IMG/VR virus record: IMGVR_UViG_3300020156_000001
Location: 106,321-170,320 of that record
Direction: 5' to 3' (one strand)
Length of the DNA: 64,000 bases
Origin: a virus
Taxonomy: Duplodnaviria > Heunggongvirae > Uroviricota > Caudoviricetes
Position 1 is the first letter of the stretch. Each line of letters begins with the position of its first letter. The notes under the pieces were generated by a model. It worked only from the letters and a program-made list of their open reading frames with translations. It was not told the origin of the DNA and ran no database searches. Shown piece by piece: positions 4,598 to 32,741 of this stretch. The translations under genes were made by a program, and so were the position numbers.

Positions 4598-5275
4598 TTA
4601 CCAGCGAGACGTACCAACGCCGGAGCTACCCGTGGAATACGAAGAACCAGTGTGCGAGAATCCTGCACTACCGTTACCAGTAATGCCGGTCTTACCGGAA
4701 AACGTACCGCTCGTGGAACCTACTGCGGTTGTGCCGGAACCGCTGGTCGAACCAGCCAAGTTTGACTGGCTAAAGCCAAAATCAGCAGTTCCCTTTGAAG
4801 TGTAAGTTCCCGATGCAGCGTTATCGCCAGTACCGGACTGCCAGCTGGTACCGTTACCGGAGATCCCAGTTCCTGTACTAGCAAAGCCACTACCCTGGGC
4901 GCCATCGCTGAAGCCCGGGCCGTTAGTAAACGCATTTGCATTGCCGCCAACGCTTGCTGCGCCGTTTGTGCCATAGGACTTGCTTGTGCCGTAGCCAACG
5001 TGATCACGAACCTGAGAGTTCGAGCTTACATCGCCGCTTGCGCCAGCTTCAAAGCCGGACTGACCAGCACCGTAGAACGAGCTGTTCTTACCACCAGTAA
5101 AGCTGTTGGATGGATTGTTGCTATTGCCGCTGGCAAAGCCGCCATTGCCGTTTGACCATGTGCCACCCGACTGGCTGCCCCAAGAACCGCTTGATCCGCC
5201 TGTGTCAAAGGACTGAGCAGAGGCTACGCCAGACATCAGCCCAAGCACTGCAAATGCCAAAATCATCTTTTTCAT
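4598..5275 (-). CDS. Secreted Gly/Ser/Asn-rich low-complexity protein
   Basis: MKKMILAFAVLGLMSGVASA signal peptide, then G/S/T/N-rich body; start set at RBS-supported ATG. Confidence 0.75.
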   Translation of the reverse strand: MKKMILAFAVLGLMSGVASAQSFDTGGSSGSWGSQSGGTWSNGNGGFASGNSNNPSNSFTGGKNSSFYGAGQSGFEAGASGDVSSNSQVRDHVGYGTSKSYGTNGAASVGGNANAFTNGPGFSDGAQGSGFASTGTGISGNGTSWQSGTGDNAASGTYTSKGTADFGFSQSNLAGSTSGSGTTAVGSTSGTFSGKTGITGNGSAGFSHTGSSYSTGSSGVGTSRW

Positions 5276-5373
5276 TGTTTCGATCTCCATTGTTCAACGA
5301 CTTTTCAAGTCGAGTGGAAGTGGTCCACCATACTCCTGTCCTTCACGGGGACAGGAGAGAACTAGGCCACCGG

Positions 5374-8374: not shown

Positions 8375-8450
8375 TGGTGCGGGGTACGGGGTTCGAACCC
8401 GTGACATGCGATTTTAGAGATCGCCGCTCTACCAACTGAGCTAACTCCGC
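8375..8450 (-). tRNA. Amber suppressor tRNA (CUA)
   Basis: GCGAT-CTCTAAA-ATCGC anticodon arm, normal D and T arms, ACCA end. Confidence 0.85.
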
Positions 8451-17430: not shown

Positions 17431-17604
17431 TCATTTAGCAGGTGTCCCCACAACACAAATAGCGCCACTGGTTCCACGAGCTTTTACTTGACCCTCAGGG
17501 CAAGTTAACTGCGAACCCTTGTAAACTTCATAGCCAAGCCATGCAGTCAACGCCCCGTAGAGGATCAGGTAAACAAGGGATGGAACTTTCTTTTTCTCAG
17601 ACAT
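17431..17604 (-). CDS. Small membrane protein, TM-CP...C family (not in ORF track)
   Basis: MSEKKKVPSLVYLILYGALTAWLGYEVYKGSQLTCPEGQVKARGTSGAICVVGTPAK, 57 aa, GGAG RBS. Confidence 0.7.
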   Translation of the reverse strand: MSEKKKVPSLVYLILYGALTAWLGYEVYKGSQLTCPEGQVKARGTSGAICVVGTPAK

Positions 17605-17662
17605 GATGGTCTCCTATTCGCACAAACTAGCATAGGAGACCTTTGATATCAAACAAAAGGAT

Positions 17663-17739
17663 TGGCAGGGGCAGAGGGATTCGAACCCCCGACACATGGT
17701 TTTGGAGACCATTGCTCTACCTGGCTGAGCTATACCCCT
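17663..17739 (-). tRNA. tRNA-Trp(CCA)
   Basis: Loop CTCCAAA, GCCA. Confidence 0.92.
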
Positions 17740-17804
17740 AGATTGTGAACTGGCCCCACCACACGCCGTTCACACAACACAACCTTGTAACTCTCCGTTT
17801 TTAG

Positions 17805-18260
17805 TGGAGCAACAAATCTGTGTTTTACCTTTAAAGGGTGCTGGGGAAGGAGCAAGCTCGACCTCCCCAGCTATCCGATCCTACCGTGCGCGGCTAGACC
17901 ATGCACCTCGGATCGAATGGGGTGGTCTAGGACGAGGAGTCGTTCCTTACTCAAGTCCTAGACCAAGAGAGTGCGTGTCCGGTAAGGGGGGCTGCACTCT
18001 CTGTTCGTTCCCAGGGAGAGCCAAGACTCTTCCCTGGGGGATCGCCGGTGACCTCTGCGGCGGCGCGGGTCACAGCAACGATTCTTAAAGGATCCGGAGG
18101 AGACACTCAGGGGTCCTCATATCTCACTCCGGCCATCCAGGCGACCTTTATGCCGAAGCAAATTTGCGCCTAGATTCGAATTAGTCCGGAAGCAACCTTG
18201 AAGTTAATCGTCAGATAAACTAGCCACTTCCGGTGCTAGAGAAGCCGCGTAAACTCCTCT
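17805..18260 (-). ncRNA. Large multi-hairpin structured RNA candidate (~450 nt)
   Basis: At least 8 helices plus long-range closing pairs, between tRNA-Asn and tRNA-Trp; no credible CDS. Confidence 0.7.
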
Positions 18261-18270
18261 AACCTCTTTT

Positions 18271-18345
18271 TGCTCCCCGACCTGGGCTCGAACCAGGGAC
18301 AATTCGATTAACAGTCGAATGCTCTACCAACTGAGCTATCGGGAA
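18271..18345 (-). tRNA. tRNA-Asn(GUU), incomplete CCA
   Basis: Loop CTGTTAA; ends G-CA-AAA. Confidence 0.85.
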
Positions 18346-18541
18346 AAACACAGCAACAAAGTGTTGTCCAGCCTTGTAGTGGTCCCTAGAGGTCTAGGGC
18401 TCTCACAACCTAAGTTGCTTTGCTGTTAAGCCTTGTCCAGCTGAACAACACTTTGTTGCTGCATCATGTTCTTGTTATAGCAAAGGAACTCTGTGTGCGT
18501 CAATTATTTTTTAAAGTTATTCACAGCCTTAGATCGATCGC

Positions 18542-25131: not shown

Positions 25132-25331
25132 CCAACTTTATACGCCAAACGATCCTATGATCGGAGCAGGATTTCGAAACCTGCATCTCTTGAGCTTCAC
25201 CGTCGCGGACACCAGTCCGCCCAGGGAATTGAACCCTGATCACCCGTTGCGTTTTACCTTTAAACTACCTCAATTGGACCCGGGGTTAATTACGTCCCTG
25301 TCCGATAAGATCGCTTGGCGTATAAAGTTGG
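25132..25331 (-). ncRNA. Structured RNA with D-arm and two T-arm hairpins inside a ~30-bp inverted repeat
   Basis: CCAACTTTATACGCCAAGCGATCTTAT pairs with ATAGGATCGTTTGGCGTATAAAGTTGG; CAGGG-TTCAATT-CCCTG; GCAGG-TTTCGAAAT-CCTGC. Confidence 0.65.
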
Positions 25332-25474
25332 ATTCAAACAGGCCGTTTCTCCACTGTTTACCCCAACCATTCCCAGTTGGGTACCTATCTAAATCCGTCC
25401 CAAATTGACCATGTTACCAGCACATTTCTATGCCTTGTAGGCTATCAACTTGTTATCGCTGTTTTAGCACCGTT

Positions 25475-32666: not shown

Positions 32667-32741
32667 TGGATCCCCTTGATGGATTCGAACCACCGACCAA
32701 CCTGCTTTGCAGGGTGCTCTACCTGGCTGAGCTAAAGGGAC
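32667..32741 (-). ncRNA. tRNA mimic with 3-nt anticodon loop
   Basis: Canonical D and T arms and CCA, but CCTGC-AAA-GCAGG. Confidence 0.7.

Follow-up and report, generated by a model that had tools for sequence, protein, structure and literature searches.

The gap between the tRNA-Asn and tRNA-Trp genes in a 64,000-nucleotide (nt) stretch of a Caudoviricetes phage genome (IMG/VR record IMGVR_UViG_3300020156_000001, positions 106,321 to 170,320; this whole stretch is called the window below) almost certainly encodes a real, conserved structured RNA, as judged by comparison with related phages. The element fills the entire gap, window positions 17740-18271 on the minus strand, 532 nt in all, and corresponds to positions 124,060-124,591 of the source genome, a 480,347-bp phage with direct terminal repeats. 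The strand is that of the tRNAs, because conserved G-U pairs and model matches read only on minus. The initial annotation of this locus, made from the window's letters alone, had placed one large ornate RNA between the two tRNA genes at 17805-18260 and named no strand. The setting holds, but the interval is too short: it ends at 17805 inside a module called Block B here, so that half of the best-conserved part (17744-17824) lies outside. Comparison also replaces the single large RNA with tandem local hairpins grouped in separable modules.

Folding calculations show a dense series of 12 hairpins across the gap. The minus-strand minimum free energy (MFE) is -240.5 kcal/mol, against -183.2 +/- 6.7 for shuffled sequences (z -8.5; 0 of 100 shuffles as good), and the plus strand gives -208.9 kcal/mol (z -4.9). 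All seven local hairpins noticed initially are present in the minus-strand MFE fold, at 17840-17871, 17923-17965, 17966-18002, 18010-18038, 18041-18082, 18094-18132 and 18186-18233. The GC content was likewise read correctly as higher than in the flanks (0.55-0.60 versus about 0.42-0.50), as was the lack of a credible coding sequence: the sole open reading frames (ORFs), 94 amino acids (aa) on plus and 51 aa on minus, have no Pfam match, and neither is conserved.

Rfam searches and homologue collection, both proposed as checks with the initial annotation, bear on novelty and on structure. Rfam 15 returns tRNAs and noise alone, both for the whole window at gathering threshold and for 17600-18500 at E <= 10; in six homologous loci at E <= 1 it returns tRNAs and sub-threshold matches to the YrlA model, nothing else. 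No Rfam model of GOLLD, ROOL, OLE or raiA matches in the window region (E <= 10) or in the six homologues (E <= 1), and none of RNase P matches at E <= 10 in 17600-18500. Since Rfam 15 has no match, the family, on this comparison, is undescribed, has no Rfam entry and is neither GOLLD, ROOL, OLE, RNase P nor tmRNA; the novelty stands. Covarying homologues were found as well, with 12 of 26 compensated base pairs in Block B and 25 of 42 in a second module, Block A. The analysis shows that the element is conserved and covaries, which strand encodes it, that its position and promoter are kept in relatives, that its modules occur independently and that Rfam lacks it.

Of 50,697 phage records searched, one matches: Sinorhizobium phage Phosso (469 kb), where the homologous sequence again lies between tRNA-Asn and tRNA-Trp. 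A 28-nt stretch is identical in the two phages bar one base, whereas the neighbouring protein is only 53% identical. The pattern derived from this stretch leads to a third copy on metagenome contig L006, homologues of the neighbouring protein lead to contigs L009, L014, L017, L018 and L008, each with a related RNA after tRNA-Asn, and a homologue on L011 was located later by covariance model. The homologues are therefore Phosso and seven metagenomic relatives, lying in gaps from tRNA-Asn to tRNA-Trp or from tRNA-Asn to a coding sequence, and on L011 with no tRNA nearby. Among the relatives measured, the neighbouring protein is 47-53% identical, and the spacer is 470-950 nt long in those having tRNA-Trp within about 1 kb. 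In Phosso-type phages, a gene 3' of the RNA encodes a 105-aa protein that lacks both a Pfam match and a homologue in the source genome; it is therefore not an obligatory partner.

Block B is the conserved core of the family and consists of these parts:

17743-17835, minus strand: Block B, conserved core of two hairpins, about 95 nt (alignment A3, model R1)
17776-17824, minus strand: long hairpin of Block B, with the 28-nt tip at 17786-17814
17744-17774, minus strand: second hairpin of Block B, with a G-rich loop at 17752-17767
Block B junction: AAAGGUAA; ACAGGUAAGACC in relatives, AAAGGUAAAAC in the window

Apart from one base in the window, six of eight homologues share an unchanged 28-nt tip, and the G-rich loop measures 16-18 nt across the family. 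The MAFFT alignment A3 of seven sequences pairs 97% of Block B cells, with the 12 compensated pairs mentioned above; none of 500 shuffles does as well, and slid controls pair at 34-43%. Covariation is also seen in the basal stem of the long hairpin (17776-17782 with 17818-17824). Searched with model R1, the 480-kb genome of the window phage yields a single copy, at 105.6 bits, while the G-rich loop pattern occurs once in the 64-kb window versus 0.02 expected.

Block A lies 5' of Block B and comprises five hairpins, delimited by models and alignments:

17836-18038, minus strand: Block A, five hairpins
18010-18038, minus strand: P_A1, small hairpin
18003-18009, minus strand: purine-rich linker AACGAAC
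17966-18002, minus strand: P_A2, with internal loop GUGC-AGC...CAC-GCAC
17923-17965, minus strand: P_A3, long variable hairpin
17873-17918, minus strand: AUUC followed by P_A4
17840-17871, minus strand: P_A5

The P_A2 internal loop is invariant in all seven sequences, and its motif GTGCAGC-N-CACGCAC occurs once in the 64-kb window versus 0.01 expected by chance. In P_A4 the relatives carry GGUCCGG...CC-U-GGAC with a bulged U. In five relatives, 17 of 42 pairs are compensated; model R2, built from these five with the window excluded, matches window positions 17834-18024 (minus) over its full length, with E of 3e-5 for 601 nt and 0.0023 for 46 kb; on the plus strand it finds nothing (best 0.4 bits). 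Adding the window gives alignment A8, eight rows with 96% of cells paired and the 25 compensated pairs, although A8 was fitted to the model and leans towards its structure. This leaning counts against the explanation favoured below, as do the low score of the R2 match (13.4 bits) and the loss of the relatives' GGUCCGG from the window's P_A4, which has GAUCCGA. A further weakness is that the comparison covers only about nine sequences of one clade, several of them closely related to one another.

Searches farther afield mark the limits of the family. Model R1 detects no Block B in two distant jumbo phages, G001 and G002 (30% protein identity), and neither R1 nor R2 matches L012 and L013, in which tRNA-Asn is followed by another non-coding stretch, or L016. 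Three versions of the Block B motif, used in exact scans of IMG/VR, give no match, near copies of the source record being perhaps outside the scan. Six pattern matches on genome contigs of unrelated metagenome-assembled genomes were rejected, with about 17 expected by chance for 18 specified bases and none matching R1. As far as we can see, the family appears limited to Phosso-like jumbo phages of rhizobia. On L012, a hairpin-rich non-coding stretch of about 390 nt (4921-5310) follows tRNA-Asn and matches neither Block A nor Block B.

The remaining 5' part of the window RNA is specific to its lineage:

18039-18271, minus strand: lineage-specific 5' region, 233 nt, five hairpins H1-H5 (MFE fold)
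18235-18263, minus strand: H1
18186-18233, minus strand: H2
18135-18176, minus strand: H3
18094-18132, minus strand: H4
18041-18082, minus strand: H5

This region has no significant sequence similarity to the 5' parts of the relatives (z -0.3 to 1.0). Its hairpins H2-H4 (18085-18243) match the Block A model weakly, at 13.6 bits, as a second copy of P_A3-P_A5, and both putative copies start with AUUCGA and end with CCUUUAA. Aligned directly, the putative copies score 18, no better than shuffles (17.8 +/- 3.0). An internal duplication of P_A3-P_A5 in the window is possible on these sequence features.

The order of modules varies among the relatives, some of which contain a tRNA-like insert; all orders below read 5' to 3':

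Window: lineage-specific 5' part (with the weak second P_A3-P_A5 copy), A, B
Phosso and L006: A, B, C, with additional hairpins between A and B in L006
L009 and L014: A, tRNA-like insert, B, C
L017: P_A4-P_A5 before P_A1-P_A3, then B, C
L018: A, tRNA-like insert, protein gene; A without B
L008: tRNA-like insert, B; B without A
L011: only B, flanked by a TTGACA-17-TATATT promoter and an intrinsic terminator with a U tail; no tRNA nearby

Block C in this list is a conserved structured domain of about 190 nt that lies 3' of Block B in most relatives and is missing from the window. It occupies L001:2764-2985 (minus) in Phosso, has equivalents in L006, L009, L014 and L017, and contains GUUUCCCA..., GAUACCGGCGAUGGC, CCGGGAAAUAAGCCG and CCGGAAGCUGGCAACCGG; its closing helix covaries (CCGG/CCGG versus CCAG/CUGG).

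Only local hairpins covary in this family. Comparison among relatives supports no helix linking A to B or joining both ends, and no multi-helix junction, pseudoknot or long-range closure with covariation was found. Two long-range closures proposed initially do not survive this comparison. The helix CCTTTAA/TTAAAGG can be drawn; CCUUUAA occurs twice, contains the self-complementary UUUAAA, and its partners are absent from all relatives. A 9-bp helix, 17812-17820 with about 18158-18166, can likewise be drawn with G-U pairs and lacks its partner in all relatives; it is unsupported because 17812-17820 lies within a conserved local hairpin with a covarying basal stem. The copy of CTAGACC at 17894-17900, suggested as one side of a pseudoknot or alternative pairing, is indeed present in a loop, but no covariation-supported pseudoknot was found. 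A pairing of the CCCC run after P_A5 with the GGGG of the Block B loop was also considered and dropped, both being near-invariant and offering no covariation to test; L008 and L011 retain the loop without Block A. Because modules separate and change order and no long-range helix is supported, we take the locus to be composed of small structured RNAs and not to form one large fold, with Block B as its apparent universal core.

The genes and signals around the element outline a possible transcription unit:

18474-18503, minus strand: sigma-70-type promoter, TTGACG at 18498-18503, 18-nt spacer, TATAAC at 18474-18479 (read from the sequence, alignment A9)
18346-18467, minus strand: structured leader of about 120 nt from promoter to tRNA-Asn, with a long stem or inverted repeat around GGACAAGG ... 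CCACUACAAG (alignment A9)
18272-18345, minus strand: tRNA-Asn(GUU), CCA not encoded (ARAGORN; Rfam tRNA 64.4 bits)
17663-17739, minus strand: tRNA-Trp(CCA) (ARAGORN; Rfam tRNA 66.1 bits)

The hexamers TTGACG and TATAA(A/C) are kept upstream of tRNA-Asn in the window, L009, L014, L017 and Phosso, the five sequences whose aligned stretch extends that far upstream. Both this promoter and the leader with its GGACAAGG...CCACUACAAG repeat are kept in Phosso-like relatives. A generic promoter scan missed the promoter because its rule demands T at the last -10 position. The site scan finds no terminator-like site from the promoter through to tRNA-Trp, including between both tRNAs. None of the sequencing runs listed as containing the window or L006 is of RNA, which is not evidence on expression.

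Several side observations concern the tRNA array and the phage itself. ARAGORN finds 49 tRNA genes in the window, every one on the minus strand, including an amber-suppressor tRNA with anticodon CUA, which the program labels Pyl, and a tRNA-Phe whose anticodon, AAA, is unusual, at 8375-8450 and 32667-32740. On L014 (7290-7324) and L018 (3825-3859), a truncated 5' half of tRNA-Asn lies immediately upstream of the intact gene. The phage is present in one soil DNA sequencing run, from which it probably derives, with small shares in others.

The favoured explanation joins these elements into one pathway. Host RNA polymerase would transcribe the unit of leader, tRNA-Asn, RNA and tRNA-Trp from the conserved sigma-70-type promoter. 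Trimming of the tRNA-Asn 3' end would then create the 5' end of the RNA, and the RNase P cut at the 5' end of tRNA-Trp would create its 3' end. The product would be a row of local hairpins, organised into a lineage-specific 5' part, Block A and Block B; of these modules Block B is the universal core and may stand as its own gene. These modules may serve as protein-binding or scaffold RNAs of a phage apparatus for tRNA and RNA quality control, with the phage's Ro60 as the most likely partner. Co-transcription with the tRNAs and release by tRNA processing is the simplest inference from the gene order. The genomic comparison suggests that one or more released, stable, trans-acting RNAs are probably produced; without its Ro60 step, the whole explanation seems fairly likely, and we lean slightly towards modules that work separately over a single particle. 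Activity in trans, like a connection with Ro60, is inferred.

Ro60 enters this explanation through the gene content of the phages and through the tRNA-like inserts. YrlA is a tRNA-like Y RNA that binds Ro60, and the motifs associated with Ro60 sites are GNCGAA, proposed in bacteria, and GGUCCGA in animals, including vertebrates. The source genome encodes a Ro60 of 604 aa (TROVE 169 bits, vWA_Ro60 170 bits; genome 268,991-270,805, minus), whose gene is tightly flanked by protein genes with no room for an adjacent Y RNA. TROVE proteins also occur in Phosso and in two more distant jumbo phages, so Ro60 is present in four of the four genomes searched whole. The tRNA-like insert is found in four relatives (L009:6650-6790, L014:7760-7905, L008:6850-6990 and L018:4330-4440) and absent from this position in the window and Phosso. 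Its parts follow the order T-arm, loop-closed acceptor stem (with a UUCG cap in L008) and canonical D-arm, which is the topology of YrlA, and three of the four relatives have an extra T-arm before it. The Rfam YrlA model matches the insert at 34.2 bits over its full length in L008 and at 28.6 bits in part in L009, both below its gathering score of 69.

Because relatives splice a YrlA-like mimic between A and B and all four whole-searched genomes encode Ro60, Ro60 is the likeliest partner. A Ro60 or Y-RNA-type function of the modules, the leading guess, is nevertheless doubtful on the present analysis. More tentative still is a specific form of the idea, an oversized modular Y RNA in which Blocks A and B dock the phage Ro60 ring, some versions display a tRNA mimic, and Block B is the minimal, universally required adaptor. 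If this were true, an infecting phage could use such docking platforms to divert host exonucleases or tRNA-repair enzymes. Y-like RNAs have been described alongside phage Ro60 before (PMC4201824, PMC12135203), and TROVE proteins have been reported from jumbo phages (PMC7824862).

A number of observations speak against the favoured explanation, and those against its Ro60 step are substantial. The window RNA shows no tRNA-like domain (no T-arm pattern and no ARAGORN or Rfam match in 17740-18271), and the window's sole YrlA match, at 16.1 bits, overlaps tRNA-Trp. GNCGAA is absent from the RNA; the nearest sequence is GGCGAU at 18041-18046. Sequences resembling Ro60 sites are this GGCGAU and GAUCCGA in the window and the locally paired GGUCCGG in relatives, none of them in a terminal stem. 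At 532 nt, the RNA is four to five times as long as the longest described Y RNA, and it lies about 145 kb from the Ro60 gene. Two Ro60-bearing jumbo phages have no Block B by R1, and another, better YrlA-like candidate lies near 72 kb of the source genome.

That Y RNA candidate, at about 71,900-72,060 (minus) of the genome, consists of a T-arm, a loop-closed acceptor and a D-arm, arranged as in YrlA, and reaches a sub-threshold 27.5 bits with Rfam YrlA. A promoter-like TTGACC...TATATG lies upstream of it, as does CCGAUAGCUUAGGG, a sequence similar to the YrlA 5' motif. A composite tRNA-like element also lies at window positions 25132-25415 (minus), where a 30-bp inverted repeat encloses a D-arm, a T-arm, a hairpin and another T-arm; its part order is unlike that of the relatives' YrlA-like inserts, and it is not a copy of those. 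Between tRNA-Val and tRNA-Arg on L009 (4502-4623), a weak, sub-threshold Rfam tmRNA match (20 bits, E 3e-4) may mark another tRNA-like element that is not a tRNA.

The main rival to a Ro60 scaffold is a base-pairing regulatory small RNA (sRNA): Block B, and perhaps Block A too, would pair with mRNAs of the host or phage through the 28-nt tip or the G-rich loop as a seed, and the other hairpins would be stabilising. The size of Block B fits this role, its loop sequences are conserved far more than their flanks, and on L011 the module is served by a promoter of its own and by a U-tailed terminator. This rival is unlikely all the same. The apical loop is swapped for a GNRA-capped stem in L008 and for a different 9-nt loop in L011, and an exact-complement scan of the phage genome finds no complement of the conserved loops of at least 13 nt, with 11-12-mers at chance level.

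The hairpins might instead be passive parts of the operon, such as processing signals, spacers or insulators by which RNase P, RNase E or RNase III would be aided in parting the tRNAs or the precursor would be shielded; such parts would be functionless after cleavage. An RNA between two same-strand tRNAs with no internal promoter or terminator fits this idea, as does the lack of sequence conservation in its 5' 230 nt. Passive parts account poorly for loops and internal loops that stay invariant while the neighbouring protein is only about 50% identical, for Block B as its own gene away from tRNAs, and for Phosso-type phages, in which a protein gene and not a tRNA comes directly after the RNA. 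We consider this explanation rather improbable.

A GOLLD- or ROOL-like large RNA, forming one folding unit and perhaps RNA-only multimers, has little probability. The initial annotation had offered a GOLLD/ROOL analogue or a new class; the new class and the tRNA-cluster setting hold, and what the RNA shares with GOLLD and ROOL is its genomic context alone. The position beside phage tRNA genes and the 470-950-nt spacer would suit such an RNA. A tertiary contact is hinted at by the GAAA tetraloop of P_A2, which co-occurs with a CUAAG-containing internal loop of P_A4 in four of four sequences with GAAA and in none of three without it. This correlation may, however, come from as few as two independent lineages, and the loop differs from the canonical 11-nt receptor. 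Neither the Rfam negatives, nor modules that separate, are reordered (L017) or have large insertions between them, nor the lack of any covariation-supported long-range helix or pseudoknot agrees with a single folding unit.

It is very improbable that the spacer contains a small protein gene or a known RNA in degenerate or divergent form, be it tmRNA, RNase P RNA, a group I intron or decayed tRNA genes: the tRNA array and the permuted T-arms and D-arm of some relatives, reminiscent of alphaproteobacterial two-piece tmRNA genes, point that way, but ARAGORN (permuted forms included) and all Rfam models are negative in the window region and homologues, no tag reading frame is seen in the window RNA or the relatives' inserts, no G3-U70 occurs (checked in L014), the acceptor of the mimic is loop-closed where read through (UUCG in L008, and in L014 too), the window RNA has no T-arm pattern, the relatives' GGUCCGG pairs locally and not at long range as P4 of RNase P would, and the ORFs are unconserved and without Pfam match while substitutions in stems are compensatory. 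The initial annotation had also seen no hallmarks of RNase P or tmRNA.

To our knowledge, few structured RNAs of more than a few hundred bases lack an assigned function, and so far every one of them has opened up new biology. The present family shows clear covariation, and the phages whose tRNA operon contains it have genomes of about half a megabase and encode Ro60 as well. With modules that are reshuffled, copied, separated into a gene of their own and joined to a tRNA mimic, it offers a natural experiment in the assembly of composite RNAs. Because Phosso is a cultured phage with a laboratory host, the RNA is open to deletion, pull-down and probing. If the link to Ro60 is true, it would extend Y RNAs well past their known size and architecture.

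Comparison with known systems places the family among several partial likenesses. GOLLD and ROOL are, like the spacer RNA, large structured non-coding RNAs often found beside tRNA genes in phages and prophages, with function unknown. They have elaborate conserved multi-stem junctions, pseudoknots and homo-oligomeric cages (PMC5737381, PMC12286853), whereas the spacer RNA matches them in neither sequence nor structure and offers only tandem local hairpins in separable modules.

YrlA and other Y RNAs (RF02553; Chen et al. 2014, PMC4201824; Yrl1/2 of Thermus phage phiLo, PMC12135203) are likewise non-coding RNAs of Ro60-encoding genomes. The orthologous RNA of four relatives has a tRNA-like domain in YrlA order, with a full-length model match in L008, and the relatives' GGUCCGG helix recalls the vertebrate Ro60 site GGUCCGA. 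The inserts, however, score 34 and 29 bits, below 69, and the window RNA has no tRNA-like domain, GNCGAA or terminal 5'/3' stem, measures 532 nt against 80-130 nt, and does not lie beside the Ro60 gene. No Y RNA described so far has anything corresponding to Blocks A and B.

Permuted tRNA-like parts in the L008, L009, L014 and L018 inserts recall the two-piece tmRNAs of Alphaproteobacteria, the class to which the hosts of this phage group belong. The insert acceptor differs in being loop-closed where read through, with no CCA there, and G3-U70 (L014) and a tag frame are lacking.

The tRNA cluster of phage T4 also encodes two stable RNAs of unknown function, 'species 1' and 'species 2' (rnaD, rnaC), of about 120-140 nt each, which are co-transcribed with the tRNAs and freed by tRNA processing enzymes. 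The likeness here is one of context, T4 being of a different phage lineage and host. Collectively, these comparisons place the RNA as a new family of a known general kind, the phage non-coding RNA embedded in a tRNA operon, and its unusual features are the shuffling of modules and the occasional fusion to a tRNA mimic.
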